Source: a virus
Virus record (IMG/VR): IMGVR_UViG_3300009965_000029
DNA length: 34,098 nt
Direction: 5' to 3' (one strand)
Shown piece after piece: positions 3,462-34,098 of this stretch. Each line of letters opens with the position of its first letter. The first letter of the stretch is position 1. The translations under genes and the position numbers were made by a program. The notes below the pieces were generated by a model. That model was not told the DNA's origin. It saw nothing but the letters and a program-made list of their open reading frames with translations, and searched no databases.

Positions 3462-3536
3462 TGCCAGCCCTCTTTCTTAATGCTATATCTGTGATTTTCC
3501 TCGAATGTTCTTTATGTTTCTTCGCTATTTGTTTCA

Positions 3537-3965: not shown

Positions 3966-3978
3966 TGCGATACCTCGT

Positions 3979-4380: not shown

Positions 4381-4382
4381 CT

Positions 4383-4709
4383 TCAAATCTCCTTTATCGT
4401 TAGGTCTTGATACCTTTTTTCAAATAACTTTTGCTTTAGCTTGTAAACATCTGTTTTCATCCCCTTGACATCCTCTATGATTAGCTTTCCGTCTTGCTTA
4501 TACATAAAGTCGGCTACATACTCAATCTTGCGATATGCTTTTCCGTTCTTCCTAAAACCCTCTTGCAGTAAGAATTTCGGTTGCAGTGTTAGGTTTTCAA
4601 TCTCTCCCTTGTTCTCTAATGCCTTTAAAACGATGTATCTTTTTGCTTCTTTCTTGGAATCAAACTTGATTCCGTCAACCTCGGTTTTCTTTGCTCTGTA
4701 TTTCGACAA
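4383..4709 (-). CDS. DUF1064-family protein (nuclease-like fold, common in Firmicutes phage replication modules)
   Basis: SKYRAKKTEVDGIKFDSKKEAKRYIVLKALENKGEIENLTLQPKF matches the family N-terminus. It has a TTG start codon preceded by AAGGGGG. Confidence 0.7.
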   Translation of the reverse strand: MSKYRAKKTEVDGIKFDSKKEAKRYIVLKALENKGEIENLTLQPKFLLQEGFRKNGKAYRKIEYVADFMYKQDGKLIIEDVKGMKTDVYKLKQKLFEKRYQDLTIKEI

Positions 4710-4836
4710 ATTTTATCGCCCCCTTGTTTGAGCCTCTATTTTTCGTTTTAAGCGATTTTTATTTTTAAACGATAATTCTATCGACGATACGCTTTTCACC
4801 GCTCTATGAGTTTAAAATCGACCTCAAAAGCATATC

Positions 4837-5373
4837 TTAATCTAATGTCTTACCCTCAATCATCATTAAGCCGTTTAGCTTGTCCTTAATCTCTGCGGGT
4901 AACATCGCCACTGCTTGCTCTCTCTCCACCACTGCCGACATCGTCTTAAAAAACTGTCCTCTAGTCACAGTTTGGAATGTCTCAGGGGGAAGCATAGCTA
5001 GTTCTTTTAGCTGACCTAAGTCTTTTAGCCACACCCTCAAAGCCTTTGGAAGCCTATCAAACTCTGCTTGTGTAAAGTACAGTCCTCGCCTTACGGCTTT
5101 GCCAAGTTCTCCCCACAACTCGGTTATTTCACTGTCTCCCCCTTTTGTGATTAGGTCTATTTCTGCTCTTAGCCCTGCAATAGTCGGTGGGTACTTCTCT
5201 TTTGCGATGTAATTTTTTAAAGCAACTGTCACTATCTGTCCGTCATCTTCTGCGAACATCAGCTCGTAAAGGCTTACTTGCGCTTTCATTTCGTCAATGC
5301 TTAGCTTTTTATAGTGCGTTGGAAATGCTGAGCTCAGTATCTGCAGTAATGCTTTTATCTCTGTTCTGTTCAT
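4837..5373 (-). CDS. G39P-like replicative helicase loader
   Basis: N-terminus (EIKALLQILSSAFPTHYKKLS..MKAQVSLYELMFAEDD..VTVALKNYIAKEKYPPTIAGL) resembles the SPP1 G39P loader family. It lies directly downstream of the replisome organiser. Confidence 0.5.
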   Translation of the reverse strand: MNRTEIKALLQILSSAFPTHYKKLSIDEMKAQVSLYELMFAEDDGQIVTVALKNYIAKEKYPPTIAGLRAEIDLITKGGDSEITELWGELGKAVRRGLYFTQAEFDRLPKALRVWLKDLGQLKELAMLPPETFQTVTRGQFFKTMSAVVEREQAVAMLPAEIKDKLNGLMMIEGKTLD

Positions 5374-5382
5374 TGCTCCCCC

Positions 5383-6084
5383 TTACAAGTCTATAAAGCT
5401 TACAGGCTTATCTTGTTTCGGCTTTCGGTTTCGCTCCCAAGTTCTCACTGCAGCTTTCCAATCCACCATCGGCTTACCTGTGCCGTACTTCCATCCTCGA
5501 GCTTCGTAATAGTCAAAGAATTGTTGTGCGTCTATGCCATTAAGTCTTTCGTCACAGTAGGCTTGTATTTTTTCGACAGTCGGTTTCTCGCGCGCACGCG
5601 ATATATTATTATTAATATTTCCCTTGTTATCTTTGTTATTTTTGTTATTTGTGGTGCAGTCGTGGTGTAATGGTGGTGCAGTCGTGGTGCAGTCGTGGTG
5701 TAATGGTGGTGCAGTCGTGGTGCAGTCGTGGTGTAATGGTGGTGCAGTCGTGGCACGCACATCTTGATATATCGTGTAATTTACAATGTTTATAGTGGTG
5801 CAATATTTTGTACTTTCTATTTCGACCATCTTGTCACCCTCTAACGCACTTAAAAATTTATCAAGTTTGCGTCTGTTCCATTTCCACCTATCAGCTAGAT
5901 ACCTTTTAGAGGTGTAGACTGTTCCTGCTTTTTTATGTTCTAACTCTCCGTGAAAATATGATTTATGGTCTTTCCACGAAGCCGTTAGTAAAAGGTCTAT
6001 CCACGCTTGCCCAAAAGAATATGGTTCATCTTGCCACAACCAATGCTCCACAAGGCTTCGTTGTACCCTTATCCATCCGTCCAT
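5383..6084 (-). CDS. Replisome organiser / DnaD-like replication initiation protein with an internal 3 x 11-aa repeat
   Basis: The N-terminal segment (GWIRVQRSLVEHWLWQDEPYS..AWIDLL) looks winged-helix-like. The C-terminus (IQAYCDERLNGIDAQQFFDYYEARGWKYG..MVDWKAAVRTWERN) resembles the DnaD/phage conserved C-terminal domain. The centre carries TTAPPLHHDCT x3. Confidence 0.7.
   Translation of the reverse strand: MDGWIRVQRSLVEHWLWQDEPYSFGQAWIDLLLTASWKDHKSYFHGELEHKKAGTVYTSKRYLADRWKWNRRKLDKFLSALEGDKMVEIESTKYCTTINIVNYTIYQDVRATTAPPLHHDCTTTAPPLHHDCTTTAPPLHHDCTTNNKNNKDNKGNINNNISRAREKPTVEKIQAYCDERLNGIDAQQFFDYYEARGWKYGTGKPMVDWKAAVRTWERNRKPKQDKPVSFIDL
5587..5652. other. GC-rich near-palindrome (CTCGCGCGCACGCGA) followed by an AT-rich tract with TTGTTAT x3 at 9-bp spacing; candidate DNA-unwinding element of the origin
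   Basis: Read directly from the sequence. It abuts the iteron array. Confidence 0.5.
5653..5751. repeat. Iteron array: nine 11-bp units (six GGTGCAGTCGT, three GGTGTAATGGT), giving 3 x 33 bp
   Basis: Read directly from the sequence. The period is 11 bp, about one helical turn. It lies inside the replisome-organiser gene. Confidence 0.9.
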
Positions 6085-6614
6085 TGTTTCTTTAACCTCT
6101 CTAGTTCTGCAGGTGTCAGAGTTTCGATTCCTTGTTCTTTACACTCGACCACCACGCTGTCTATAAGCCGTGACATTTCATCAGTTTTATAGGTACTGCT
6201 TCCGTAGTAGCTTTTGATGTTGTGATAGCCTTTAAAGTTCTTACATTCGCCCAAGTCTTCACATATCCACCCCTCACCGTGTTTTTCCCATACCTTGACC
6301 CAATGTTCCACAACATCAGCCTTTATCGGCACTATCTCAAATACTCCGACCTCGGAGATTAACTTTCGGTATATGTCAGTTTTCATCTGCCTTGTCTTGT
6401 CTGCTAGCTTTCCAACAAGTGTCCAAAAGTACGCGTTTGCGTCAAGGCTTCTGCGTTTTGATTTAGGCTTGATGATGATGTCATAGTCCTTGTTTGTGTC
6501 AATCTTTATGCCGTCGATTAGTTCCAGAATTTGTCTGTGCTGACCCTTAGGGAGATTGATTGATATTTGGTCGACTTGATATAAAACCCTTAGCTGAATA
6601 TCTTGTATTTTCAT
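6069..6614 (-). CDS. NinB/Orf-like recombination mediator
   Basis: KSKRRSLDANAYFWTLVGKLAD resembles the lambda NinB RSLDQN..W..LGD motif. It sits inside the recombination module. Confidence 0.45.
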   Translation of the reverse strand: MKIQDIQLRVLYQVDQISINLPKGQHRQILELIDGIKIDTNKDYDIIIKPKSKRRSLDANAYFWTLVGKLADKTRQMKTDIYRKLISEVGVFEIVPIKADVVEHWVKVWEKHGEGWICEDLGECKNFKGYHNIKSYYGSSTYKTDEMSRLIDSVVVECKEQGIETLTPAELERLKKQWTDG

Positions 6615-6883
6615 AAGTAATTTTTCCCAAACTCCTTTCTAAAATCTTTGTTTGGATAGTGCTTTTCAAAGGCTTTCTGCCCTAGTTCGTGAAAGTATTG
6701 CATTACTGATTTGTTGTGATGAACACCGTTCGGTGGCTCGTTGTGGTCACAGTGGCAAAGGAAAACCTTTAAGCCGTACTGCTCACTCTTCTTTCGATAC
6801 GGACCACCGAAGATATGATGTTCTTCCACATAAGGACTTCCACAGATAAAGCACTCTCGCTCACTCTGTATGATTGATTTCAT
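6611..6883 (-). CDS. Small Cys/His-rich (HNH-like zinc-binding) protein
   Basis: CFICGSPYVEEHHIFGG..RKKSEQYGLKVFLCHCDHNEPPNGVHHN. Start and stop are coupled to neighbours by ATGA and TAATG overlaps. Confidence 0.4.
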   Translation of the reverse strand: MKSIIQSERECFICGSPYVEEHHIFGGPYRKKSEQYGLKVFLCHCDHNEPPNGVHHNKSVMQYFHELGQKAFEKHYPNKDFRKEFGKNYL

Positions 6884-7635
6884 TACTGCTCCTTGCCGTT
6901 CTCAATATCCCTTAGGATAATTAAGGCTCTGCCGTGGTGTTCCTTTGTCATCGGTCCACTTGTCCATCCTGTCTTTTTTAAAATCTCTGTTGCGTCAAGA
7001 TTCATAGCCTTGCAAAGTTCAATGTATGTCTTTTTTTCAGCCGATGTGGCTAGTTCTTCGGATAGGTCTATCGGCTCATCGTTTAACGGCTCTTTGGAAG
7101 TCGTTTTTTTGCCTTTAGGAACGGCTTTGCCCATCTTGTAGACAACTACATTACTTTTAGTATTAACTATGCTTAAATCGGAAATTTTGCCGTTATCATC
7201 ATAGCTGATTTGGTTTACGATAAATTTATCGAAGCATTGCCACTTTCCATTCCTTTGAACGATATTACAGTCGGTCTTATTTATGAAAATGAATGGTGCC
7301 GTGTATAGTTCTCTACCGATCCCCCAATTAAAGCACGCTCTCTTAAAGCTATCGCTCGCTTCTCCTTTTTCTTTTTCGGTCATACTTTCGGTTCCGACAT
7401 CCTGCTTCCACACCCAATCATTTCGATTTTCAAAGTAGATACCGACTGAACAAAATAGGTTGTCCTTTATTACCTCGTGGTGTCTTTGCCAATTTTCAGG
7501 ACCTACAGTTTCATCAAGGATATTCATATCGCACCTTGCGTCTTTATACAGTAGCAATATCAACCCTTTTTCTGTGACTGACTGCACCCTGCAATCAATC
7601 TCATCTGCTCTTAGCTTTCTAAACTTTAATCCCAT
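6883..7635 (-). CDS. Rad52/22-family single-strand annealing protein (Sak-like recombinase)
   Basis: KGEASDSFKRACFNWGIGRELY is the hallmark Rad52-type motif. The N-terminal beta-rich domain is also consistent. Confidence 0.7.
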   Translation of the reverse strand: MGLKFRKLRADEIDCRVQSVTEKGLILLLYKDARCDMNILDETVGPENWQRHHEVIKDNLFCSVGIYFENRNDWVWKQDVGTESMTEKEKGEASDSFKRACFNWGIGRELYTAPFIFINKTDCNIVQRNGKWQCFDKFIVNQISYDDNGKISDLSIVNTKSNVVVYKMGKAVPKGKKTTSKEPLNDEPIDLSEELATSAEKKTYIELCKAMNLDATEILKKTGWTSGPMTKEHHGRALIILRDIENGKEQ

Positions 7636-7928
7636 TCGTCCAACCTCTCCTCTATTAGTTCTTTAGGGTTATCGTGCCCTCTGTTTGTTAGCCATTCCTC
7701 AATTTCTTTGAGGGTTTCGTCTATCTCGCTCGAACAAGTTTCGCACATATCCTCGCCCTCTTTCATGTACTCTCCACAACCACACTTGACAGCATCGTCA
7801 TAAAGTTCTCTGCCACAGTAAGGGCAAGTCAATACGATTTCCTCTTTTGTGTACTCGCCATATCTCGCATAGTCTGTTGTGCGTCTAGGCTCGACGGCTT
7901 CGTTACAGCTTTCGCACCATTTATACAT
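7626..7928 (-). CDS. Cys-rich zinc-ribbon protein
   Basis: CESC..CPYCG..CGCG..CETC motifs in 100 aa. RBS GGAGATAG. Confidence 0.75.
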   Translation of the reverse strand: MYKWCESCNEAVEPRRTTDYARYGEYTKEEIVLTCPYCGRELYDDAVKCGCGEYMKEGEDMCETCSSEIDETLKEIEEWLTNRGHDNPKELIEERLDEWD

Positions 7929-8631
7929 TTGCTATCTCCTCTATTGTCATTTGATTAGGGTCTATTCCCTCCATTACCTTAGCTACTCTGAGTAGCTTAA
8001 ACGCTCTCGACCTTAGCTGGTTTACTGTCGCCCTTACATCCTCTTTGCTTCCCATCCAATAGCCTTTGCCGTGTGTTAAGGAACATATCGGATAGCCTTG
8101 TTCTCGCAGGCTTCTTATAGCAAGCCTTATAGTTCTTTCGTTTTCTCCTATCATTCCTACTAGGTAGCCTTTTGATTTAGGCTTACTGCCTAGAATTGAC
8201 AGTAGGCGCTCCTCTATGATAAGATTCTTTTGTGTTTGGGCACTCTTCGGAGTGTCTTTTTTACTGTTCCTATTGCCACTGTTCCAATTGCCACTGTTCC
8301 TATTGCCACTGTTCCTATTGCCACTGTTCCTATTGCCACTGTTACAAAGTGTCAACACTTCTTCCCAAGCCAGCTCACGAACAATCTTGATTTTGTTAGT
8401 GCAGTGCTTTGTATCATCGTCATCCTTGTCAATCTCCCCAAGTGCTTCAATCTCAGCAACCTTGTTGTCAGTATTAAAGCTGTAATAATTAAAGCAATCG
8501 GCTAAGTTAGTGCAAAAATGAAACCCTCTACCACAACACTGAGGTGATTCTTCCATTTCGTATGTTTTGCCGACTTCATATTTAAAATCTCTGCAAGTCC
8601 AATCTCCATTAAAAACTTTATAACCTTTCAT
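7921..8631 (-). CDS. Chimeric protein: Cys-rich N-domain, (NSGNR)5 pentapeptide-like repeat and C-terminal winged-helix (HTH_11/BirA-N-like) domain
   Basis: The N-terminus (GYKVFNGDWTCRDFKYEVGKTYE..CGRGFHFC) is of the type that precedes SGN-type pentapeptide repeats in phage proteins. The C-terminus (GYLVGMIGENERTIRLAIRSLREQGYPICS..GKGYW) looks like a winged helix. Confidence 0.65.
   Translation of the reverse strand: MKGYKVFNGDWTCRDFKYEVGKTYEMEESPQCCGRGFHFCTNLADCFNYYSFNTDNKVAEIEALGEIDKDDDDTKHCTNKIKIVRELAWEEVLTLCNSGNRNSGNRNSGNRNSGNWNSGNRNSKKDTPKSAQTQKNLIIEERLLSILGSKPKSKGYLVGMIGENERTIRLAIRSLREQGYPICSLTHGKGYWMGSKEDVRATVNQLRSRAFKLLRVAKVMEGIDPNQMTIEEIANV
8263..8343. repeat. 15-bp tandem repeat ACTGTTCCTATTGCC, 5.4 copies (one copy has a 1-nt variant)
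   Basis: Read directly from the sequence. It is in frame and encodes the NSGNR repeats of the 7921-8631 gene. Confidence 0.95.
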
Positions 8632-9116
8632 TTTCTCAATATCCTTTCTGCGTATGCTTTTCCGTCTTCGGTATTTCCTGAGTTGTAAACTGATAGTGCG
8701 TCCTCGTAGTTACCATACTTGTCATATAGGTCTGACAGAATGCTACATCCTAGAATTACATTTTCTTGTGGGTTAAATAGGCTTACGATTCCTAGTTCTT
8801 CCATTCGCTTTTGGTGGTGCTTTGGTTGTATCTGCATTAAGCCTATTGATTCGCCATTATCACCTACTGCGTTAGGATTGCCTCCTGATTCCTCTTTGAT
8901 GATTGCTTTGACGATGTTAGGGTCTACTCCACATCTTGTCGCTATATCGTCAATCATTTCATTTGAGATTCCCTTTACATCAATCTGTATATTGCTAACG
9001 ACTTTGTATTCCGTCTGCTGATACACTTGAGGGTTGTCAATCGCAGTTGCTATGCCGTTAAGCGTAAGCACTGCAGATATAAATAGTGTCGGTGGTATGA
9101 TTGATTTAATCTTCAT
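8628..9116 (-). CDS. Exported lytic transglycosylase (SLT domain) with a signal peptide
   Basis: MKIKSIIPPTLFISAVLTLNGIATA signal-like N-terminus. IIKEESGGNPNAVGDNGESIGLMQIQ is the SLT catalytic motif. The ATG at 9116 is preceded by GGGGGAAG and overlaps the upstream stop as ATGA. Confidence 0.8.
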   Translation of the reverse strand: MKIKSIIPPTLFISAVLTLNGIATAIDNPQVYQQTEYKVVSNIQIDVKGISNEMIDDIATRCGVDPNIVKAIIKEESGGNPNAVGDNGESIGLMQIQPKHHQKRMEELGIVSLFNPQENVILGCSILSDLYDKYGNYEDALSVYNSGNTEDGKAYAERILRK

Positions 9117-9701: not shown

Positions 9702-10337
9702 ATGTCTACGCAATTAGGAAACAAAAGTATAATGGCTAGAAATATTCAATACTATATGGACTTAACAGGGAAAACAAGAAACGATATGTGCGAAGCTTTG
9801 GGGGTGAAATATACCACATTTACAGATTGGGTCAAAGGTAAAACATATCCACGAATAGATAGCATAGAGAAGATGGCAAATTATTTCGGTGTAGAAAAGT
9901 CTGATTTGATAGAACCACGCACAGGGTTAAAAGAAGTCAAAGCCGTGAAAATACCTGTTCTTGGGATGGTTCACGCAGGGTATCCTATGGAAGCAATCGA
10001 AGAAATTTTAGATTGGGAAGAAGTAACCCCTGAAATGGCATCTAAGGGCGACCTTATGGCTCTTAGGGTTCAAGGTGACTGTATGGAGCCGAAATTCAGT
10101 GACGGAGATACAGTTATCGTGCGTTGTCAAAGTACTGCAGAGAGTGGCGACATAGTAATCGCTATGGTGAATCACGACGAAGCAGAAATGAAAAAACTTA
10201 AAAGGTTCGATAATGGCTTTATCAATTTAATACCTCTAAATCCGTCATACTCGGCAAGGTCATTCTCCCCTCAAGAAATAGAAGAATTACCTATAAGGAT
10301 ATTGGGTAAGGTAGTAGAATTGAGAGCGAAGTTCTAA
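9702..10337 (+). CDS. CI/LexA-like phage repressor (XRE HTH plus S24 peptidase domain)
   Basis: N-terminal HTH and an Ala-Gly site in VLGMVHAGYP. The S24 block (LRVQGDCMEPKFSDGDTVIVRCQSTAESGDIVIAMV..EAEMKKLKRF) aligns with LexA GDSM..DGD..V..GDIVVA..KR. RBS GGGAGG. Confidence 0.9.
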   Translation: MSTQLGNKSIMARNIQYYMDLTGKTRNDMCEALGVKYTTFTDWVKGKTYPRIDSIEKMANYFGVEKSDLIEPRTGLKEVKAVKIPVLGMVHAGYPMEAIEEILDWEEVTPEMASKGDLMALRVQGDCMEPKFSDGDTVIVRCQSTAESGDIVIAMVNHDEAEMKKLKRFDNGFINLIPLNPSYSARSFSPQEIEELPIRILGKVVELRAKF

Positions 10338-10346
10338 GGAGATATT

Positions 10347-10745
10347 ATGGATAACGACAAGTTCGCTGCTAGACAAAGAATAACAAAATATATCTTTACT
10401 ATAATATTCGTTGTTCTAGTTATAGCTTCTGTAATAGCCGTAAAAGAGATTATAGATGATAAATATATAGAATCAAGAGCACCTGCCACTTGGACAGGCA
10501 AAACATACGATGTTGAATCAGACGGCGAATACTATTCGATGTATGAGGTAGTTCCACCACAATATTTTGAGTTAGTAGCGTATAATAAGAAAACGGAAAT
10601 GCTTGCGATAAAGACATATGACGAAACAGAGGAGCATATATACTATGATGTTCCTGAAAGTGTGTTTGAGAGGTTTATAAATCATAAATCGCCACTAGAA
10701 TTTTATAATAAATATCTAAAGAACACTTTTGAAAGTGATTATTAA
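10347..10745 (+). CDS. Membrane-anchored protein with a C-terminal KTSC-like domain (lysogeny-expressed moron)
   Basis: N-terminal TM helix (YIFTIIFVVLVIASVIAV). The C-terminus (LAIKTYDETEEHIYYDVPESVFERFINHKSPLEFYNKYLKN) resembles the KTSC domain pattern Y.Y..VP..v...f....S.G..fn..i. Confidence 0.55.
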   Translation: MDNDKFAARQRITKYIFTIIFVVLVIASVIAVKEIIDDKYIESRAPATWTGKTYDVESDGEYYSMYEVVPPQYFELVAYNKKTEMLAIKTYDETEEHIYYDVPESVFERFINHKSPLEFYNKYLKNTFESDY

Positions 10746-10797
10746 AACAAAAGAACCCTCTGCATAAAACAAATAAAAAGGGTGCAGAGGGCTCTGA

Positions 10798-10852
10798 GGT
10801 TGCAATGACGCAACGGATGTATCAGCCTTATTGTATCATTGCGACCCCTTTT
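10798..10852 (+). terminator. Terminator/attenuator-like hairpin upstream of int
   Basis: GGTTGCAATGA (10798-10808) pairs with TCATTGCGACC (10836-10846), giving 11 bp including one G-U, followed by CCTTTT. Confidence 0.5.
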
Positions 10853-10891
10853 AGTCAAAGGGGAATTTTATTTCCCCAAAAGGGAGTTAAA

Positions 10892-11926
10892 ATGGCAAGG
10901 AAAGAATATATTCAGAAAGCCTTTACCTTTAATGGTAAGAGGTATTATGCTTACGGCAAAACGGAAGCTGAAGCTATAAGAAATAGAGAATTAAAGAGAA
11001 TAGCACTAGAGCAAGGAAAAGTCATTACAGAAGCTACTATGACGCTTGCTGAGTGGTCTGCTCAGTGCATAGAAACCTATAAGGTGAACTGTTCCGAAAA
11101 AACAAAGAAAGATTTTACCTATACTGTAAACGGAAATATCTTGCCTTTAATTGGATCATATCAGTTAAAAGCGATTAATGAAATAATGTGTCAACAAGTG
11201 ATGAATAGTCAAAAGGGAAAATCTGCGTCGCAAATATCAAAGGTGTATCAAGCGATGAGATTTTTGTTTGATAAGGCAAAGGCTCTAGATTTAATTAATA
11301 AGAACCCTGCCTTACATTTAGAAAAGCCCTTAGGACAATCATTAAAACGCAGAGCATTAACTCAAGATGAGCAAGAATTAATCACAAGGGTTGCTCTGAC
11401 AAAACGCAAATACTACGGCTATTTACTAATGTTGTATTGTGGTTGCCGTCCGTCCGAAGCCTTTAATGTCACTGCAGAGGATATATCCGTGCTAGATGGT
11501 GTGCCATTGCTCCATATAAGAGGAACAAAGACGCTTAATGCTAATCGTACAGTTCCTTTACCAAAATGGCTCTATGATGAATTTAAAGGCTTACAAGGGT
11601 ATATCTGCCTTACAGAAATGGGAACAAAGATAAATAATAACCGTAGTAAAAATGCTTGGTATAAATTTAGAAATGAGTTAAATCTCGCTCTAGGTTGCAA
11701 AACATATCGCAACAAACTTGTTCCACCATACCCATTAGCAAGCGACATAGTACAATACTGTCTTAGACATACATATTGCACTAACCTAGCGAAAAAAGGA
11801 GTAGACATCAGAACGGCTCAAAAACTGATGGGTCATTCAGATATTTCTCTGACGGCTAATATCTATACACATACAGACAATGACGATATACTAAACGCAG
11901 CTAAACTTATAAACAGTAGTACATAG
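10892..11926 (+). CDS. int: Tyrosine recombinase / phage integrase
   Basis: Catalytic-type motifs are CGCRPSEA, HIRGTKT, LRHTYCT and MGHSDISLTANIYTH. The ATG at 10892 is preceded by AAGGGAG. The upstream 29 codons of the track ORF overlap a hairpin and lack an RBS. Confidence 0.9.
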   Translation: MARKEYIQKAFTFNGKRYYAYGKTEAEAIRNRELKRIALEQGKVITEATMTLAEWSAQCIETYKVNCSEKTKKDFTYTVNGNILPLIGSYQLKAINEIMCQQVMNSQKGKSASQISKVYQAMRFLFDKAKALDLINKNPALHLEKPLGQSLKRRALTQDEQELITRVALTKRKYYGYLLMLYCGCRPSEAFNVTAEDISVLDGVPLLHIRGTKTLNANRTVPLPKWLYDEFKGLQGYICLTEMGTKINNNRSKNAWYKFRNELNLALGCKTYRNKLVPPYPLASDIVQYCLRHTYCTNLAKKGVDIRTAQKLMGHSDISLTANIYTHTDNDDILNAAKLINSST

Positions 11927-12195: not shown

Positions 12196-13479
12196 TTAGT
12201 TAAATATATCAGCCAATATATCATCGGATATATCGCCTAGCACAAAAGCCTTTTTGATTCCGTGCTTATTGATGTATGCCTTAGCTGATTCATTGGTATA
12301 CTTATTGACTAGCAGTACAGGATAGTCACCTAGATTGCTTGCCACTAGTCCATCAGCCCACGCATTTACAAGTATCACAGTATCTGCGTGAGGATAAAAT
12401 AGGTCAGCAATCTTTGTTGATGTCTCGTACCTATCTAGTCCGTCAAGCCTTGTTACCTTGCTGATGTCTGCAAGCTGTCGCTCAATATCCTTTGACACTA
12501 CACTTTCGCCACCTAGAATGATGTACTCAAGGTCAGACTGTCTATCTAAGAATGACGCTTGCTTGATTGTGAGATAATCGCCCACCATCATTACAGGGTG
12601 ACGCACTGTTGATACAGATACACCATCAGCCCAATCCTTGCCACTTGTGATGATTAGCTTTTTAGCACCTTTGATGCACTCTTTGAGCACCTCAAGATTA
12701 GTTGCGTATCTATCAGCACCACTCAGCACCTTTACTCCAGCACCATTAATCTTTACATCGCCACCGACAACGGTTGTCTCAAGTCCATTAGTACCCTTGC
12801 ACTCATCATATACTAGATTAGCCTTTTTAGTGTATGCAAGATAACCAGCACTCAAGCCATCTGCAAAGCCTTTGCCACTAACGACAACCTTATTAGGTTT
12901 TAGATGTGATTCAGCGATTAGGTCTGCTGTCTTGTATCTATCCTCGCCATTATACCTAGTGATAGTCACATCTGATGGTATTGTCTTTTTCTCAGGTACA
13001 GGCTGAGCACCACCACCATTATAGTAATACTCTGCTCTGCGATAGAGCTCGTCTAGTCGGTCATACCATACTCCCGGACACTGTGTCGGCTTGATGTCTC
13101 TATGCCCTCTAAGTGGTAATTTTCGACCGTAGAATCTCCATATATCAGCGATAAGTTCTGCTACTGTCTCAAAATCAGCTGGTCTACACTCAGGTCTACA
13201 CTCGATACCGATTGAGCGTGCATTCTCCTCCATCACTCCAGTGTGCCAAGCGACATTAGGATAACTAACGATACAAGCTACTCTACCAGCTTCTGCGACT
13301 AGGTGAGCCGATGAGCCACTCTTAGGATTACATAGCCAATTAACGACGCCCATAAAGGACAGTCCGTAGGCTCCCCACCAATGAATGCAGATGTATTCAG
13401 GGTGGTTCTGATTCGTTTCACCAACATAGTATTTGCCGTAGTTTGGACTATCGTATGATTCTATTAGTTGATATGCCAT
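12196..13479 (-). CDS. Endolysin: N-acetylmuramoyl-L-alanine amidase (Amidase_2/PGRP type) plus three CW_binding_2 repeats
   Basis: ICIHWWG..SAHLV..NARSIGIECR..GHRDIKPTQCPG is the amidase core. The three repeats are marked by GEDRYKTADLIAE, GADRYATNLEVL and GLDRYETSTKIAD. Confidence 0.9.
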   Translation of the reverse strand: MAYQLIESYDSPNYGKYYVGETNQNHPEYICIHWWGAYGLSFMGVVNWLCNPKSGSSAHLVAEAGRVACIVSYPNVAWHTGVMEENARSIGIECRPECRPADFETVAELIADIWRFYGRKLPLRGHRDIKPTQCPGVWYDRLDELYRRAEYYYNGGGAQPVPEKKTIPSDVTITRYNGEDRYKTADLIAESHLKPNKVVVSGKGFADGLSAGYLAYTKKANLVYDECKGTNGLETTVVGGDVKINGAGVKVLSGADRYATNLEVLKECIKGAKKLIITSGKDWADGVSVSTVRHPVMMVGDYLTIKQASFLDRQSDLEYIILGGESVVSKDIERQLADISKVTRLDGLDRYETSTKIADLFYPHADTVILVNAWADGLVASNLGDYPVLLVNKYTNESAKAYINKHGIKKAFVLGDISDDILADIFN

Positions 13480-29269: not shown

Positions 29270-29342
29270 TGTCCCCACCCTTTCAAACTAAAATAAAAAA
29301 AAACACAAGCTCAATCAAGATTTGTAGTTATCAAATAAAAAG

Positions 29343-29392
29343 GCTTCTAGGTTCGCCATTCCTCTGATATTGAGGTGGTTACTTGTAGAAGC
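29343..29392 (-). terminator. Terminator-like compound hairpin within the late-operon leader
   Basis: On the minus strand, outer stem GCTTCTA..TAGAAGC and inner stem CCTC..GAGG, followed by CTTTTTATTT. Confidence 0.45.
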
Positions 29393-29549
29393 ATTATATT
29401 GTATCGCTCGCCCTTTGCGATGCTTTACCCCTTTTAGGTCCTTTCTTTGTATGTGCGAAAGGCTCACCACTACGGCAAGCCCTACCCCACATAATTTAGA
29501 AAGGTTGAAATCATGGACAATAACTAACTATTGTACTGCTTACAAGTAT

Positions 29550-29558
29550 ATTATATCA
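29550..29558 (-). promoter_or_regulatory. Candidate late promoter: extended -10 TGaTATAAT with no good -35
   Basis: The minus strand reads tgTGATATAATatac. A palindrome occupies the -35 region. Confidence 0.5.
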
Positions 29559-29578
29559 CATCTTAAACATTTAAGATG
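29559..29578. promoter_or_regulatory. Perfect palindrome CATCTTAAA-ca-TTTAAGATG abutting the late -10
   Basis: Read directly from the sequence. It has 9-bp arms and a 2-bp spacer. Confidence 0.6.
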
Positions 29579-29588
29579 AATTTTTTCA

Positions 29589-29608
29589 TTGAAATTTACA
29601 CATTTCAA
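29589..29608. promoter_or_regulatory. Inverted repeat TTGAAAT-ttacac-ATTTCAA between the divergent promoters
   Basis: Read directly from the sequence. Confidence 0.5.
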
Positions 29609-29649
29609 GCCATTTTGAAAAAATATTTTAAAAAAGTTTTAAAAAGGTG

Positions 29650-29678
29650 TTGACATACTGCACAATGTGTTATATGAT
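29650..29678 (+). promoter_or_regulatory. Accessory-operon promoter: TTGACA-17 nt-TATGAT with an A/T-rich upstream element
   Basis: The plus strand reads gtgTTGACAtactgcacaatgtgttaTATGATac, preceded by aaaaaatattttaaaaaagttttaaaaa. It lies about 70 nt upstream of the J-domain gene. Confidence 0.75.
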
Positions 29679-29746
29679 ACATACAACGAAGCGCACAAAG
29701 TGCGTAACGCAAAGATGTATCAAATAAAAGAAATGAGGTTGTAAAG

Positions 29747-30229
29747 ATGTATTTTGAAAATTGTAGCACACTAGAACAGTTAAAAGCAGAGTATAAAAGG
29801 TTAGCCATGATGTACCATCCTGACCGTGGCGGTGATTTGAGGACAATGCAAGCTATCAATTCCGAATATGATAGCAAGTTTAAGCAGGTCAAGGACTGTC
29901 ACATTAACAAAGATGGTAAAACTTATAGCAAAGAGACAAGCGAGAAATCAAGCGAATTTGTAGAGTTAATCAATCAGCTAATCAGAATGAAAGGTATTGC
30001 AATAGAGATTATAGGTTGCTTTGTATGGGTCAGCGGAGATACTAAGCCACATAAAGACGGCTTGAAAAAATTGGGCTTTAAGTGGCACAGAGTAAAGGCT
30101 TGTTGGTATAAATCGCCGCAGGGATATAGGCGTTTTAGCAACAAGAAAGAGTACACATTTGACGAAATCAGGGCGATGTACGGGTCGATGACGGTAAACA
30201 CAAAGCCAATGCAGGAATTAACAGTTTAA
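29747..30229 (+). CDS. J-domain protein (DnaJ-like co-chaperone) with an unrelated C-terminal domain
   Basis: LEQLKAEYKRLAMMYHPDRGGD carries the HPD signature. The C-terminus (IEIIGCFVWVSGDTKPHKDGLKKLGFKWHRVKACWY) is not a DnaJ G/F or zinc-finger region. Confidence 0.8.
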   Translation: MYFENCSTLEQLKAEYKRLAMMYHPDRGGDLRTMQAINSEYDSKFKQVKDCHINKDGKTYSKETSEKSSEFVELINQLIRMKGIAIEIIGCFVWVSGDTKPHKDGLKKLGFKWHRVKACWYKSPQGYRRFSNKKEYTFDEIRAMYGSMTVNTKPMQELTV

Positions 30230-30240
30230 AAAGGATATTA

Positions 30241-30258
30241 GCCCCTCTACGGAGGGGC
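30241..30258 (+). other. Intercistronic GC hairpin GCCCCTC-tacg-GAGGGGC
   Basis: Read directly from the sequence. There is no U-tract, and the RBS of the next gene follows immediately. Confidence 0.6.
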
Positions 30259-30271
30259 AGGAGGTGAAAAG

Positions 30272-30904
30272 ATGAACAGATTTAAAAAATATTGTCCAAA
30301 TGTATGGGTTGCAGAGTGTGAAGAAGAGTACAGCAAGGGCGACATCATAGAATTAACTACTAAATATGACAAAGTCGTTGAGTGTGAGGTTTACAACCTT
30401 GTTGGGCAGACTGGTGATAAATACTATTACTCAATCGTGAGACTAGAGGGCTTAAGCTATGCGGAGCGTAAGGCTGACAAATACAGAACCGCAAGCGCTC
30501 GCAATATGGCACGCAGTAACGAAAGATTGAAATCTGCAGAAGAGAGTAAAGAGTTTTTATCACTCGGAGAACCCATCAAGGTTGGACATCACAGCGAAAA
30601 ATCGCACAGGGCACTAATTGAAAGAAATTGGAAGCGCACGGCTAAAGCCGTTGAGTATATGAACAAAGCGGAAGAGCAGGAACATAAGGCGGAGTATTGG
30701 GAGAATAAGGCTAAAGAAATCACCCTTGCAATGCCTGAAAGCCTTGAATTTTTCACCGCCAAGCTGGAGCAAGCAAAAGAATATCATAAAATGTTGAAAG
30801 AACATCCGGAAAAACGCAAGCATTCTTATTCTTTGACTTATGCAAAGAAAGAAGTCAACGAACTAACAAAAAAAGTCGAGATAGCTACAAAGTTATGGGG
30901 TTAA
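30272..30904 (+). CDS. DUF3560-domain protein
   Basis: GEPIKVGHHSEKSHRALIERN..AEEQEHKAEYWENKA fits the DUF3560 core (GQPILVGHHSE..R type). RBS AGGAGGTG. Confidence 0.6.
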   Translation: MNRFKKYCPNVWVAECEEEYSKGDIIELTTKYDKVVECEVYNLVGQTGDKYYYSIVRLEGLSYAERKADKYRTASARNMARSNERLKSAEESKEFLSLGEPIKVGHHSEKSHRALIERNWKRTAKAVEYMNKAEEQEHKAEYWENKAKEITLAMPESLEFFTAKLEQAKEYHKMLKEHPEKRKHSYSLTYAKKEVNELTKKVEIATKLWG

Positions 30905-30916
30905 GTTGAGCCACTC

Positions 30917-30938
30917 AGAGGGGGAATCGTCCCCCTCT
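30917..30938 (+). other. Intercistronic GC hairpin AGAGGGGGA-atcg-TCCCCCTCT
   Basis: Its arms are the same as those of the late-operon terminator at 12173-12193. There is no U-tract. Confidence 0.6.
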
Positions 30939-31010
30939 CTGGCACAAAATAGATTGTAAATTTTGAATTGTAATGTTATAGTGTGATATATAGTAAGGAG
31001 AGGTTTTAAA

Positions 31011-31733
31011 ATGTTGAAAGTTAAATGGATTGAAAACGGAGAACTTAAAGAAACTACAGTATATGAGAGCGTGCAAGACGCAACAAACGGCAAGGATGTA
31101 AATGCATTTTTAGACTTTCTTGTTGAACAAGGCAAAAACATAGATATTGAGGAGATTAAAAGCAAACTCAAGAGTTGCGATTGCATCGAAGAACTTAACG
31201 CAGTTTTTAAACAGTATTTTGATTATAGCAATATTGCTCTAGATGTTGCACATCTTGACTATGAGGTGTGGGTCGGCCACATAAATAAGTACGGTTGTCA
31301 CGGTCCTGAGGTTTCAGATTCTTGGTTAATGCTTCAGACGGACGACCTGGAAGAAGCTAAGGCAAGGGCTAGAGACGAATACAACGCAAAGAGCGATTAT
31401 ATTGTTGAGTTAAGGAGCGACATTGGTCTAGACTATGACAGTTACGACCTTGTAGACTTTAAGGAGTACAGCGATGATATATTCAACATTTACGATTTAG
31501 CAAAAGTAGAGTACGACGAAGACGCTGACACCTGCGATTTAAAATTTTATGATAAGACTTGGGATATAACGGCATATATCCACAGTGTACCAATTCCTGA
31601 ATGGCTCAAAACCGAAGAGGATGACAAGCCTGTGTACATCTTTGATGCCTTAGATTGGGAAAGCGACAAAGCTATAGAGTACGCTTTAGAGCATGGAGAA
31701 AAAGAAATAGTAAGAGATACAATTAATTTTTAA
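31011..31733 (+). CDS. Highly acidic 240-aa protein (DNA-mimic / anti-restriction candidate)
   Basis: My count gives 59 Asp+Glu against 24 Lys+Arg. RBS AAGGAGAGG. No motif was recognised. Confidence 0.7.
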   Translation: MLKVKWIENGELKETTVYESVQDATNGKDVNAFLDFLVEQGKNIDIEEIKSKLKSCDCIEELNAVFKQYFDYSNIALDVAHLDYEVWVGHINKYGCHGPEVSDSWLMLQTDDLEEAKARARDEYNAKSDYIVELRSDIGLDYDSYDLVDFKEYSDDIFNIYDLAKVEYDEDADTCDLKFYDKTWDITAYIHSVPIPEWLKTEEDDKPVYIFDALDWESDKAIEYALEHGEKEIVRDTINF

Positions 31734-31751
31734 CAAAGAAAGGATTTTGAA

Positions 31752-32000
31752 ATGTATACGCACGAAGATTTTAAAAAGTTCTCAAAAATCCTTGCTGATA
31801 ACGGCTATACATATAGCTATAACGAGGGCTCAGGGTCTCATCAATTTACTAGCGCAGATGGTGGCGAGTGTCTAGAATATCGTGATTATAGCACAGCAGA
31901 CGGCAAGCCCGAAGATTGGGGCGGTATCGTTTGTAGCGATTGGCACCGAATTTGCCTAAACATTGTGGAAGAATCAGGTTTTATTGATGGGATTGAATAA
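31752..32000 (+). CDS. Small acidic protein (82 aa)
   Basis: 16 Asp+Glu against 6 Lys+Arg. RBS AAAGGA. Confidence 0.65.
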   Translation: MYTHEDFKKFSKILADNGYTYSYNEGSGSHQFTSADGGECLEYRDYSTADGKPEDWGGIVCSDWHRICLNIVEESGFIDGIE

Positions 32001-32005
32001 GATTA

Positions 32006-32027
32006 TAAGGGCGATTAATCGCCCTTA
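32006..32027 (+). other. Intercistronic perfect 22-nt palindrome TAAGGGCGATT/AATCGCCCTTA
   Basis: Read directly from the sequence. Confidence 0.6.
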
Positions 32028-32049
32028 ATCGTTTGTTTAGGAGGTTTAA

Positions 32050-32418
32050 ATGATTATCAACGGCAAAAGATACGACACAGATAAAGCCGTATATATAGGC
32101 TTATACGATGAATCAAAGCTATACAGGAAGCGCACAGGGGAATTTTTTCTTGAAGATGGTGGAAAAATCAAACCACTGTTAATCGATGAAGCAAAGAAAA
32201 TTATTGAGGTTGTGGCACCTGAAAAAATGGCGGACTTATTCCCTGATACAACCATTATTGACAGGGTAAAGGCTCTTAGGGGGGCTCTAACACAGCACGA
32301 ATTTAGCAAGGCTTACGGTGTTCCTGCGAGGACCTTGCAAAGTTGGGAGATGGGCGACCGTGTACCTCCTGCTTATGTTCTTGACTTGTTAGAGTTCAGA
32401 ATCAAGCACGAAGCCTAA
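32050..32418 (+). CDS. Two-part protein: unknown N-domain plus C-terminal MqsA/HigA-like HTH
   Basis: LTQHEFSKAYGVPARTLQSWEMGDRVPPAYVLDLL is the HTH pattern (xRTLQxWExGxRxP). It is the last gene of the operon. RBS TAGGAGG. Confidence 0.7.
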   Translation: MIINGKRYDTDKAVYIGLYDESKLYRKRTGEFFLEDGGKIKPLLIDEAKKIIEVVAPEKMADLFPDTTIIDRVKALRGALTQHEFSKAYGVPARTLQSWEMGDRVPPAYVLDLLEFRIKHEA

Positions 32419-32639
32419 AATTGCGTTTTAAGAGGTTTTTATTTATTGCCCTATAAGATGGCACGAAAACCCTTAAACTGTTGCCAGTGGTTCGCTAGGC
32501 TTGTTACAAGCCTATGAATATATACCACTGCTAACTAGAATATAGTCGCTCAGTTAGAGCCTATAAAAAGTGGTCTGTGGGGAACCCTAAAAGATGGTGG
32601 TAAAATGCTCAAACTCTTAATTTAATACATCAAGAAAAA

Positions 32640-32667
32640 AGCCTTGAATAATCAAGGCTTTTCTTTT
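32640..32667. terminator. Bidirectional rho-independent terminator between convergent operons
   Basis: AGCCTTGA-ataa-TCAAGGCT, flanked by AAAAAA upstream and TTTTCTTTT downstream. It ends both the plus-strand accessory operon and the minus-strand early operon. Confidence 0.85.
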
Positions 32668-33073
32668 ATTTGATAATATATTCCACTCTGTCAAGTGTCG
32701 CTTCTTTTAGCCTGTGGGCTTTGGAAGAATTGAGGTTGAAATATTTCTGAACGGCTTTTGTTTTGTTGGGGATATTGTGCATATATAGTTCGTATATATA
32801 GTTTTCGTCTGCACTTGAACCCTCTATTAGCTTTGCTATCCCCTTAAAATACCACCTATAAGGCTTTAATCGTTTCTCGAATCTTTCCCTCTGTATGGCT
32901 TTGTTTTCCACTTCTGAAGCTATGTTGCTGCTCGTCACCCTTTCTTTTGAATAATCAAGTCCCATACTTGTTAGAATATCTTTGTATTCTTCGCAAAGCT
33001 TTTCGTATTCTTCCTTATTCCTTTTGTAGTCCATCAAATAAGCTTTTACATCAAACTTATAGTAGTTCTGCAT
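32666..33073 (-). CDS. RinA/ArpU-like late transcription activator
   Basis: 135 aa. Its layout parallels RinA-type activators of Firmicutes phages: YLMDYKRNKEEYEKL..DYSKERVTSSN..SEVENKA, then ENYIYELYM, then NLNSSKAHRLKEATLDRV. It is the last gene of the early operon. Confidence 0.5.
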   Translation of the reverse strand: MQNYYKFDVKAYLMDYKRNKEEYEKLCEEYKDILTSMGLDYSKERVTSSNIASEVENKAIQRERFEKRLKPYRWYFKGIAKLIEGSSADENYIYELYMHNIPNKTKAVQKYFNLNSSKAHRLKEATLDRVEYIIK

Positions 33074-33905: not shown

Positions 33906-34082
33906 TTACTTCTCCTTGATTTCCTTGATATTTTCTAGCGTAAATACTCGTTCATTATCTGTTCCATTTTTACAGTAGTAACATTCAGTTCCCATGATGA
34001 TAAGACTGTCCAATATTCCCTCGTGTACTGTATTGTCTGTCAATGTTACTTTAACTTTTTTGTTTATGTAATCATCTATCAT
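33906..34082 (-). CDS. Small protein (58 aa) whose gene spans the circularisation point
   Basis: Hand translation gives MIDDYINKKVKVTLTDNTVHEGILDSLIIMGTECYYCKNGTDNERVFTLENIKEIKEK. RBS GAGGGGAAA. The same ATG is at 109-111 in the left repeat copy. The ORF is only intact when the contig is read as a circle or in the right-hand copy. Confidence 0.55.
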   Translation of the reverse strand: MIDDYINKKVKVTLTDNTVHEGILDSLIIMGTECYYCKNGTDNERVFTLENIKEIKEK

Positions 34083-34098
34083 AGGTTTATTTCCCCTC
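33972..34098. repeat. Terminal direct repeat, copy 2 (identical to 1-127)
   Basis: Base-by-base comparison of the window start and end. Confidence 0.95.

Follow-up and report, generated by a model that had tools for sequence, protein, structure and literature searches.

What is the function of five consecutive plus-strand ORFs (29747–32418) that lie between a RinA-like gene and terS in a temperate siphophage, away from the early operon and oriented against it, and do they form a single system? The phage, whose host group is Clostridia, comes from a human mouth sample and has a complete circular genome of about 34 kb; "the window" denotes the whole stretch of 34,098 nucleotides that was analysed. 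Besides the block, the window encodes a CI-like repressor (HTH plus S24 peptidase), a Cro-like HTH protein, a tyrosine integrase, an amidase lysin, TerL, TerS and, by a weak match (TIGR01636, E = 0.003; phrog_36), the RinA-like protein, in agreement with the flanking genes named in the original prediction. A separate early replication/recombination module in the same phage contains SSB, a Rad52-like protein and DUF1064. All five ORFs of that prediction were present in the ORF list (g1–g5), and a Shine-Dalgarno sequence can be read upstream of each. They are arranged on a fixed scaffold consisting of a promoter (P_main) and 5'UTR, a first cargo position (slot A), a hairpin and second promoter-like sequence (P_int), a second cargo position (slot B), a further hairpin, g5, a 220-nt 3'UTR and a terminator, with the following features:

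29279–29649, no strand assigned: divergent intergenic region between the late operon (minus) and the block, including an A/T tract
29650–29678, plus: P_main, predicted sigma-70-like promoter, TTGACA-17-TATGAT, 11/12 consensus match, the best of the region
29692–29704, plus: small hairpin CGCAC-AAA-GTGCG in the predicted 5'UTR
29747–30229, plus: g1, 160 aa, slot A, J domain plus C-terminal domain
30241–30258, plus: g1/g2 hairpin GCCCCTC-TACG-GAGGGGC without a T-run, read from the sequence
30272–30904, plus: g2, 210 aa, slot A, N-terminal domain of about 60 aa plus DUF3560 core
30917–30938, plus: slot A end hairpin AGAGGGGG-AATCGT-CCCCCTCT, likewise read from the sequence
30954–30982, plus: P_int, promoter-like, TTGTAA-17-TATAGT with extended -10 TG (TG-n-TATAGT), kept before slot B in every variant
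31011–31733, plus: g3, 240 aa, pI 4.2, two domains, slot B, orphan
31752–32000, plus: g4, 82 aa, pI 4.4, slot B, orphan
32006–32027, plus: hairpin TAAGGGCGAT-TA-ATCGCCCTTA, immediately 5' of the g5 ribosome-binding site
32050–32418, plus: g5, 122 aa, phage-group-specific N-terminal domain plus C-terminal HTH
32419–32636, plus: structured non-coding 3' region after g5 (about 220 nt), 90–94% identity in relatives
32637–32662, no strand assigned: predicted hairpin terminator in common with the convergent RinA-like gene, 11-bp stem, T-run on one side and A-run on the other

P_int, the three intergenic hairpins and the conserved 220-nt 3'UTR had no counterpart in the original prediction.

Both P_main and the terminator are predicted elements, recognised by consensus match. 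P_main lies on the correct strand 68 nt 5' of the first ORF, with an A/T-rich tract (29612–29648) directly upstream of its -35 hexamer. When both strands were scanned, three sites matching at least 11 of 12 consensus positions were found in the whole window, among them P_main and the expected cro/early promoter at 9618(-). Since random Markov-1 genomes yield 1.2 such sites, the match by itself is not significant, and P_main is credible because of its position and strand and its retention in relatives, where the -35 hexamer is kept and the -10 hexamer reads TACGAT in some. The promoter sequence and upstream A/T tract originally proposed are real. For the terminator, which had been called bidirectional, the 11-bp stem and T-run are present and the scan flagged the plus strand only, the bidirectional part being visible from the sequence. 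Folded together with the terminator, the 3' region of g5 gave a fold z-score of -3.4, and an Rfam search of this region returned no family above threshold. The search for an operator revealed no convincing repeat common to P_main and P_int. The G+C content of the block did not differ from that of the rest of the genome and gives no sign of a recent foreign origin.

The block varies among relatives. Seven gene contents were found at exactly the same site in phages whose RinA-like proteins are 97–100% identical (p113 and p117 being unrelated genes of slot A):

variant 1: J-DUF3560-g3-g4-g5
variant 2: J-DUF3560-g3-g5
variant 3: J-DUF3560-g4-g5
variant 4: J-DUF3560-g5
variant 5: g4'-J-DUF3560-g5, with a 3' remnant of a g3-like gene
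variant 6: p113-g4-g5
variant 7: p117-g3-g4-g5

Slot A is accordingly filled either by the genes for the J-domain and DUF3560 proteins, g2 always being accompanied by g1 in this lineage, or by an unrelated gene of 113–117 aa. Slot B may contain g3 or g4, the two together or no gene at all, and g5 is the sole gene found in every variant. At the junctions of the slots the variants have conserved sequences. The divergent region 29279–29649, in which no long ORF was called, is kept in all of them, including those lacking the J gene; in the 5'UTR hairpin the left arm alone varies (GCGCAC to GCACAC); and the slot A end hairpin is present in most variants, including those with p113, and missing from two loci (L003 and L004). 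The hairpin at 32006–32027, which is conserved and marks where slot B ends on the right, may be an attenuator. Among the relatives found, none has a site that is entirely empty. More distant phages with the same terL and portal types carry the J gene first, followed by unrelated cargo, in which one protein has a DarA_C domain and another is of the Bro-N/ANT type; in L154, the last position is taken by a g5-like HTH protein (41% identity). Small proteins of acidic pI (4.1–4.6) are over-represented in the cargo of related loci.

This polymorphism supports the earlier view of the block as an inserted, transcriptionally self-contained island, given that gene content changes beside a RinA-like protein that is at least 97% identical. 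It does not support the suggestion that the five genes constitute one combined system: the genes are exchanged independently among near-identical phages and are thus not co-inherited as a unit. The pairing of J-domain and DUF3560 genes, for which co-occurrence elsewhere had been proposed as a check, proved to be confined to this lineage, as none of 76 other DUF3560 viral loci contained a J gene and none of 43 other J-gene loci contained DUF3560. In view of this lack of linkage outside the lineage, the two proteins need not act together.

The J domain of g1 is, judged by homology, genuine, as had been proposed. Although the single sequence scored slightly below the Pfam DnaJ cut-off (27.1 versus 27.8 bits), the family profile matched solved J domains with E = 9e-8, and the HPD motif (residues 24–26 of g1, in its N-terminal domain) is invariant in all 34 family members compared. 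The C-terminal domain has a beta-beta-alpha-beta-beta order and is weakly DUF5710-like, with 16 of the 34 members weakly matching DUF5710, a domain associated with TOPRIM primases. The AF2 model consists of two domains (pLDDT 86.9); Foldseek searches of the g1 and g3 models against PDB and BFVD gave no match below E = 0.03. More than 240 proteins make up the family, encoded by phages or conjugative elements in Clostridia, Bacteroidota and Fusobacteria; on the conjugative elements the gene adjoins Replic_Relax and coupling-protein genes.

The second gene, g2, encodes a DUF3560 protein (Pfam E = 2.5e-34; full-length match to phrog_17519). Relatives were found in contigs of viruses, in phage isolates and in plasmids or ICEs; in ICEHin1056, a protein 54% identical to g2 over its full length is encoded beside ssb, topB, radC and a gene for ICE replication. 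A relative in pO157 adjoins an ssb gene, Pasteurella and Porphyromonas phages carry DUF3560 in early operons together with Bet/RecT, exonuclease, SSB and an Apyc1-like gene, and by Pfam annotation DUF3560 also adjoins an SNF2 helicase gene. Matches in Vibrio and Yersinia plasmids align to residues 57–176 only and not to the extra N-terminal domain that marks the 210-aa subfamily. The original description of DUF3560 as a leading-region family was correct: as DUF3560/YdbA it is family 28 (the 28th largest) among those enriched in plasmid leading regions, with 1913 members (FDR p = 0). The family is oriented on the T-strand, and its median position of 12 from oriT is close to that of ssb (Samuel et al. 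2024, PMC11541004, supplement).

The residue counts ascribed to g3 were exact, with 59 acidic and 24 basic residues; g4 has 16 and 6, respectively. Neither protein has a PHROG or Pfam match. The N-terminal domain of g3 is also found as free-standing acidic proteins of 82–115 aa, and its C-terminal domain occurs in a natural fusion to a g5-type HTH (HTH-g3C), encoded at a moron site after the lysin gene, between lysin and integrase. The C-terminal HTH of g5 is weakly Xre/MqsA/HigA-like, as originally described; the nearest families are HigA-2, MqsA, NadS and Atu1735-type HTH domains, all matching below curated cut-offs, and a PDB sequence search found Atu1735 and HigA-2 and did not find Aca1 or Aca2.

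Taken together, the block is, on balance, probably a hypervariable moron-type island with its own predicted transcription, flanked by terS and by the RinA-like gene, the last of the early genes. Its arrangement is one typical of phage loci for counter-defence and host takeover. By analogy we lean, with some reserve, towards an accessory island of the Acr/Aca type, anchored by its HTH gene, that would manipulate the host or counter its defences; the layout foreseen in the original prediction is seen in the constancy of g5, the location of P_int directly before g3/g4, the acidic cargo (pI 4.1–4.6) and the HTH-g3C fusion. None of the five proteins matched known anti-defence or defence families, and PADLOC returned nothing meaningful. 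Beyond the anatomy, polymorphism, domain identities and family distribution described above, a working can be proposed that is conjectural as to expression timing, interaction with DnaK, any anti-defence effect and control of the locus by its own g5. The locus would supply its functions while the phage DNA establishes itself. The HPD motif of g1 would trigger ATP hydrolysis by host DnaK, which the C-terminal domain might steer to a particular target in a Rki-type hijacking of the chaperone. Judging from the ssb, recombinase and topoisomerase genes that accompany its family in leading regions, ICEs and phage early operons, g2 may act on or protect incoming or replicating element DNA. The g3 and g4 products could be acidic proteins with a fast turnover that block host proteins by binding to them, perhaps by mimicking nucleic acids, and g5 would bind the locus promoters and limit expression in the manner of Aca proteins.

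A resident prophage rather than an infecting phage could be the source of expression, the block being a lysogenic-conversion or superinfection-exclusion moron that benefits the lysogen, for instance by excluding phages or plasmids or altering host physiology, with g5 as local regulator. We regard this as unlikely, even though a counter-oriented block that has a sigma-70-like promoter and a terminator of its own agrees with it, as do the HTH-g3C gene at a classic moron site in the lysin–integrase interval and the presence/absence polymorphism, which is also typical of prophage-borne defence hotspots. Moreover, no CI/Cro operator-like repeats were found within the block, the promoter included, so CI would not silence it and P_main could be active in lysogens, which fits lysogenic conversion better than early infection. 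On the other hand, PADLOC detected no defence family, and elsewhere the DUF3560 and J-domain families occupy early or leading regions rather than lysogeny-expressed sites. Superinfection-exclusion proteins are typically membrane-associated, and small, very acidic and presumably cytoplasmic proteins suit inhibitors better.

The content of slot A raises the further question of whether J and DUF3560 form a DNA-establishment or replication accessory module, and not a counter-defence one, in which DnaK, recruited by the J protein, would remodel a complex for replication or recombination, DUF3560 would work with SSB or a recombinase on phage DNA, and g3 and g4 would be unrelated passengers. Host DnaJ and DnaK have an established replication role in remodelling lambda P-DnaB and plasmid Rep proteins. 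The DUF3560 neighbourhoods (ssb, topB, ICE replication gene, radC, Bet/RecT, exonuclease, SNF2 helicase) fit a role in DNA replication or recombination equally well as one in anti-defence, and the Replic_Relax and coupling-protein neighbours and weak DUF5710 matches of the J family point the same way. Such a module nevertheless appears doubtful: the phage already has an early module with SSB, Rad52-like protein and DUF1064, the site lies outside the early operon on the opposite strand, and near-identical phages have exchanged J and DUF3560 for an unrelated 113-aa protein or have no DUF3560, which indicates that the pair is dispensable for replication. Far less probable still is an addiction or abortive-infection module with g5 as MqsA/HigA-like antitoxin and the upstream g4 or g3 as toxin. 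The order would be that of higBA and mqsRA, in which the toxin gene precedes the antitoxin gene, and HigA-2 and MqsA are among the HTH domains most similar to that of g5; yet all HTH family matches fall below curated cut-offs, the gene preceding g5 is g4, g3 or DUF3560 depending on the variant, so that there is no fixed partner, and g3 and g4 are strongly acidic, unlike RelE, HigB or MqsR toxins.

Among known systems, the original statement that none of the five proteins belongs to a family with a demonstrated function in phage was wrong for J-domain proteins: Rki (ORF 057w) of the T4-like phage RB43 is an early protein that binds DnaK, aids phage growth and acts through stabilisation of sigma-32 (PMC3486835). 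Both Rki and g1 are small phage proteins with a genuine, HPD-containing J domain and without the generic client-binding domains of DnaJ, and g1 follows the same minimal logic of a J domain plus one private domain. Outside the J domain no sequence relationship was seen, RB43 being missing among tblastn matches at E <= 1e-3, and the beta-beta-alpha-beta-beta domain of g1 belongs, in contrast to Rki, to a large family in phages and conjugative elements. As Firmicutes are not known to have sigma-32, the target of g1 would have to differ from that of Rki.

Leading-region islands (ssb, psiB, ardA, klcA, methylases, YdbA/DUF3560) resemble the locus in that g2 is a true DUF3560 member with ICEHin1056 and pO157 neighbourhoods of the same kind, but this is a dsDNA phage and not an element transferred as ssDNA, it is without Frpo-type ssDNA promoters, and the g2 subfamily has its additional N-terminal domain. 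With phage morons the block shares its own promoter and terminator, transcription against the flanking operons, a position between a normally adjacent RinA-type activator and terS, and variable presence in relatives; it differs in its unchanged G+C content, the lack of an empty-site relative and its multi-slot rather than single-gene design. P22 immI is likewise a regulated island among late and regulatory genes, and one relative here carries an antirepressor-type Bro-N/ANT gene, though the window has no ant, arc or mnt homologues. Acr/Aca operons, as outlined in PMC9410906 and PMC8633003, similarly combine a strong promoter, small proteins of low conservation that are often acidic and differ from one close phage to another, a conserved distal HTH gene as the only constant member (here g5) and insertion between otherwise conserved phage modules. 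In contrast to these operons, the present locus has no protein related to any known Acr or Aca and no operator was found in it, and it has two slots, two promoters and large families (J, DUF3560) beside orphans. The HTH-g3C fusion, finally, resembles HTH-Acr fusions, of which AcrIIA1 is an example.

The first 127 bases of the window are identical to the last (bases 1-127 and 33972-34098), which indicates a circularly closed assembly and thereby a complete phage genome of 33,971 bp, so that the genes at both ends of the window form one continuous early operon. Human metagenomes, including at least one oral metagenome, are the source of the contig and many of its relatives. The phage genes lie on the minus strand with the exception of the lysogeny unit. 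The genome encodes a CI-like repressor (HTH and S24 peptidase), a Cro-like HTH protein and a tyrosine integrase. It further encodes a lysin with Amidase_2 and CWB2 domains, a TerL of the Terminase_6N/6C type and an SSB. A 132-aa KTSC-domain protein is encoded on the lysogeny strand between the CI-like repressor and integrase genes (10347-10745). The early operon also encodes, on the minus strand, a DUF7666 protein (7921-8631, E = 7e-37) and a protein with weak similarity to Rad52/22 (6883-7635), so the phage has recombination functions of its own apart from the block. Another early gene (116-799, minus strand), which is kept in all relatives, carries Pfam dGTP_diPhyd_N (PF18909) in the existing annotation of the identical contig. 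It may have to do with manipulation of the nucleotide pool or with DNA modification.

The block itself lies on the plus strand between terS and a RinA-like gene, and consists of a J-domain gene (g1, or J), a DUF3560 gene (g2), two genes for acidic orphan proteins (g3 and g4) and an HTH gene (g5). The five reading frames, as well as the promoter and terminator motifs named in the original prediction, were all found in place, together with several further elements:

29560-29577: perfect 8-2-8 palindrome, ATCTTAAA-CA-TTTAAGAT, in the divergent promoter region
29584-29620: run of TTTCA/TGAAA half-sites in the divergent promoter region
29650-29678, plus strand: P_main, promoter-like site, TTGACA-17-TATGAT, 11 of 12 consensus positions
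29747-32418, plus strand: g1 to g5 (160, 210, 240, 82 and 122 aa), each preceded by a Shine-Dalgarno sequence
30917-30938: G+C-rich hairpin after slot A, the exchangeable position held here by g1 and g2
30954-30982: P_int, internal promoter-like site, TTGTAA-17-TATAGT with an extended -10 TG, followed by a ribosome-binding site
32006-32027: hairpin after slot B, the exchangeable position held here by g3 and g4; the g5 ribosome-binding site is next
32419-32636: non-coding stretch of approximately 220 nt from the g5 stop codon to the terminator
32637-32662: terminator hairpin with an 11-bp stem and A- and T-runs at its flanks, closing the block against the RinA-like gene
32666-33073: RinA-like gene, convergent to the block

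Comparison with phages whose RinA-like protein is 97-100% identical to that of the window firmly establishes a modular, rapidly exchanging locus, with its own predicted transcription signals and one invariant HTH gene. At this one site seven gene sets were found, in which g5 is the sole gene common to all and the others vary. The original prediction had considered that the five genes may form one system, a view that was rejected since they assort independently among relatives.

Gene sets at the locus and the loci or contigs that carry them
J-DUF3560-g3-g4-g5: the window
J-DUF3560-g3-g5: L003, L133-L140
J-DUF3560-g4-g5: L004/L145
J-DUF3560-g5: L002/L152
g4'-J-DUF3560-g5, with a 3' stump of a g3-like gene: L005, L141, L142
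p113-g4-g5: L146, L147, L150, L151
p117-g3-g4-g5: L148

In each variant of the window's lineage, J and DUF3560 are either both present or both absent, and a search for their co-occurrence found no instance outside this lineage, on which ground a conserved J/DUF3560 pair was rejected. Their place can be taken by p113/p117, an unrelated gene of 113-117 codons (L146 8407-8748, minus strand; L148 5978-6331), for which no Pfam, PHROG or PDB match was obtained with p113. There are relatives of 43% identity in phage contigs from human faeces, as well as a partial match in Edwardsiella phage ET-ABTNL-9. Where a slot is empty its borders are joined directly; no relative with a completely empty site was recovered. 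The G+C content of the block is not atypical for the genome, and a DNA-level search with the block yielded nothing in isolated phages and, in plasmids, weak matches over the DUF3560 gene only.

The case for P_main as a promoter is convincing because of its location and conservation, not because of its score. The whole window contains three sites that match at least 11 of 12 consensus positions, compared to 1.2 in random sequences. One site (9618, minus strand) falls between cI and cro, and is the early promoter expected there. The third (TTGACA-16-TAGAAT, 12492-12520, plus strand) lies inside the lysin gene and antisense to it, and is probably a chance match. P_main and the 5'UTR are identical whether J or p113 is the first gene, and the consensus matches of both predicted promoters are conserved across the variants.

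The palindrome and the run of half-sites may be targets of the RinA-like activator or of g5, in DNA that is A/T-rich and holds several inverted repeats near P_main, one of which is not conserved in relatives. No A/T-rich inverted repeat, and no operator, was found to be common to P_main and P_int, and an alignment of 14 relatives, used as a footprint, was uninformative for operators. The gene at 32666-33073 is itself RinA-like by size and position only, its full-length match to TIGR01636 (E = 0.003) scoring 17.8 bits against a cut-off of 31.9; it also matches phrog_36, "transcriptional regulator", with E = 3e-4. At the other end of the block, the non-coding stretch after g5 is conserved like coding sequence (90-94% identity), contains a long hairpin at approximately 32478-32535 and, with the terminator included, has a more stable fold than shuffled sequence (z = -3.4). 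It could represent a 3'UTR-derived RNA or a protein-binding site. Rfam and tRNA scans gave no match above threshold, and an Rfam STnc430 match that overlaps the terminator was dismissed as chance (32.8 bits against a threshold of 47).

The J domain predicted for g1 was borne out. The HPD motif (residues 24-26) is invariant in all 34 family members, and a search with the family profile recovers solved J domains (T antigen, DNAJA1 and DnaJ) with E = 9e-8 to 8e-6, the single sequence scoring 27.1 bits against a Pfam cut-off of 27.8. In the AF2 model (pLDDT 86.9, pTM 0.82), the J-domain helices span residues 9-23 and 31-48, and a compact beta-beta-alpha-beta-beta domain follows at residues 84-122, with a weak Pfam DUF5710 match in 16 of the 34 members (best E = 0.0012). 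Judged from sequence, g1 has a genuine J-domain fold with HPD, while DnaK binding and ATPase stimulation are proposed. The glycine-rich, zinc-finger and client-binding domains of DnaJ are absent, which suggests a specialised J protein, like Rki of phage RB43. Foldseek, applied to the AF2 models, found nothing below E = 0.03, neither for g1 in the PDB nor for g3 (pLDDT 81.9) in the PDB or BFVD, with TM-scores of at most 0.31 (query-length normalised) in both cases. Equivalence of the g1 C-terminal domain to the N-terminal domain of DUF3560-adjacent phage SNF2 helicases was rejected (hhalign probability 3.8%), and a PADLOC match to the ZorC C-terminus (E = 0.005, 13.7 bits) was too weak for use.

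The J family comprises more than 240 proteins of approximately 160-170 aa, some of them annotated as "molecular chaperone DnaJ". Members occur in isolated Cellulophaga and Fusobacterium phages, in an Enterococcus phage record that is unverified, and in Clostridia genomes beside DUF3846 and conjugation genes (Replic_Relax, coupling protein and M48 peptidase). DUF3846 is the upstream neighbour in four genomes, and lies just upstream of the J gene in L103, a Peptococcaceae genome. There (2403-8791) the J-family gene adjoins a UvrD-like helicase and a 1430-aa helicase with an MrfA Zn-binding (MZB) domain, which may be a defence-type pair. Among more distant phages with terL and portal types in common, three groups have the J gene at the head of a counter-oriented block located between terS and the end of the early operon; in one of them (L082) a small gene lies upstream of J on the same strand. 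The cargo of these blocks is entirely different from that of the window, and much of it is of 59-117 aa with a pI of 4.1-4.6:

L082: four small genes
L086: ten genes, including a stand-alone DarA_C-domain protein (9718-9909, E = 6e-19) and a Bro-N/ANT antirepressor-type protein (10512-11348)
L154: six genes, the last being a g5-like HTH gene (41% identity)

The identification of g2 as DUF3560 was confirmed (PF12083, 118.5 bits against a cut-off of 27.2, E = 2.5e-34, model positions 6-122 of 124). The 210-aa form occurs in 80 viral contigs and many contexts, with 48-54% identity across phyla. It adjoins ssb, topB, an ICE replication gene and radC in ICEHin1056; in phages of Pasteurella and Porphyromonas it belongs to early operons that also encode Bet/RecT, an exonuclease, SSB and an Apyc1-like nuclease. 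Other neighbours are SNF2 helicase, ParB_N, a TET-associated glycosyltransferase, a PAPS-reductase-like protein and a Dam-like methylase. In the survey of plasmid leading regions by Samuel et al. 2024 (PMC11541004), DUF3560/YdbA stands as family 28 among the thirty most abundant enriched families, with 1913 members, at median gene 12 from oriT on the T-strand. On pO157 the family is found beside ssb.

The acidic character of g3 was exactly as predicted (59 acidic and 24 basic residues) and extends to g4 (16 and 6). A word index gave 13 homologues of g3, and a HMMER profile search of 1.84 billion representative proteins only 7. Its N-terminal 80 residues also occur as free-standing acidic proteins of 82-115 aa, and its C-terminal two-thirds recur in a 219-aa protein of other prophages, where they are joined to an HTH of the g5 type. 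This HTH-g3C fusion is located after the lysin gene at the prophage end (L090 6649-7660, also L091-L094), and upstream of it lies an unannotated 120-aa gene with a poly-glutamate tail, truncated to 49 aa in some contigs. No homology of g3 or g4 to known inhibitors was found, and g4 has no Pfam or PHROG family and no PDB match. For g5, with 56 close homologues and one distant, the predicted MqsA/HigA-like HTH stood as a C-terminal Xre/MqsA/HigA-like domain, its closer assignment being weakly supported: all Pfam HTH_3 and NCBIfam NadS/MqsA matches fall below cut-offs, that to TIGR03830 (MqsA-type antitoxin) reaching 17.7 bits of 61.8. In a PDB sequence search Atu1735 (E = 2e-4) and HigA-2 were recovered; neither Aca1 nor Aca2 was among the matches.

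At the locus, variable genes lie upstream of a constant HTH gene and behind predicted promoters, in an Acr/Aca-type layout. Such an architecture is the one through which anti-CRISPR loci are found via aca genes (PMC9410906 and PMC8633003). The resemblance is strengthened by the position of P_int directly upstream of the variable acidic genes, by the existence of the natural HTH-g3C fusion and by the acidity of the cargo. Moreover, the large families that fill slot A, J-domain and DUF3560, are both typical of those regions of mobile elements that are expressed first, which favours a role in host manipulation and counter-defence at establishment. Such a combined role, with g5 as a local repressor, has in our estimate somewhat better than an even chance. 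It is rather unlikely that the block is instead a conversion or exclusion moron expressed from the prophage, a reading favoured by the absence of CI/Cro operator-like repeats at the block. A replication or recombination accessory role of slot A would fit the neighbourhoods of DUF3560, but J and DUF3560 are replaced or lost in near-identical phages, and we regard it as likewise rather unlikely. A toxin-antitoxin pair with g5 as the antitoxin was rejected and seems very unlikely indeed, since the gene upstream of g5 differs among variants, leaving no fixed partner, and the candidate toxins are acidic.

A bolder proposal, also rather unlikely, is that the J-DUF3560 cassette would constitute an undescribed counter-defence or establishment device common to phages, ICEs and plasmids. 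The element-encoded J protein would then commandeer host DnaK, leading to disassembly or mis-folding of an immunity or DNA-surveillance complex, with DUF3560 as a DNA- or SSB-associated partner or decoy. Similarly, p113 and the acidic slot-B proteins would act as interchangeable inhibitors of different host defences, and g5 would represent a new Aca-like regulator family governing all cargo.

If true, the locus amounts to a natural experiment, in which near-isogenic phages differ only in the genes of two defined slots, so that phenotypes should be straightforward to assign to the J-domain protein, DUF3560 and the acidic orphans. It gives clean and testable access to DUF3560 and to the widespread J-domain family of mobile elements, and any function established here for DUF3560 would hold for thousands of plasmids and ICEs as well. 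In turn, g5 could serve as a marker gene for further accessory loci in the poorly studied oral and gut Clostridia phages.

To our knowledge, Rki is the only phage J-domain protein characterised, and its sigma-32 mechanism cannot, as far as we know, apply in Firmicutes. A second and widespread phage J-domain family would widen the theme of chaperone hijacking beyond it. In RB43, the early-expressed Rki binds DnaK and supports phage growth (PMC3486835); it bears no sequence relationship to g1. As a type, the locus is already known, as a variable island of accessory or anti-defence genes with a regulator for its anchor; undescribed are the window's locus itself with its two-slot scaffold, each of its proteins, and the J-first/HTH-last layout that recurs in a group of Clostridia phages.
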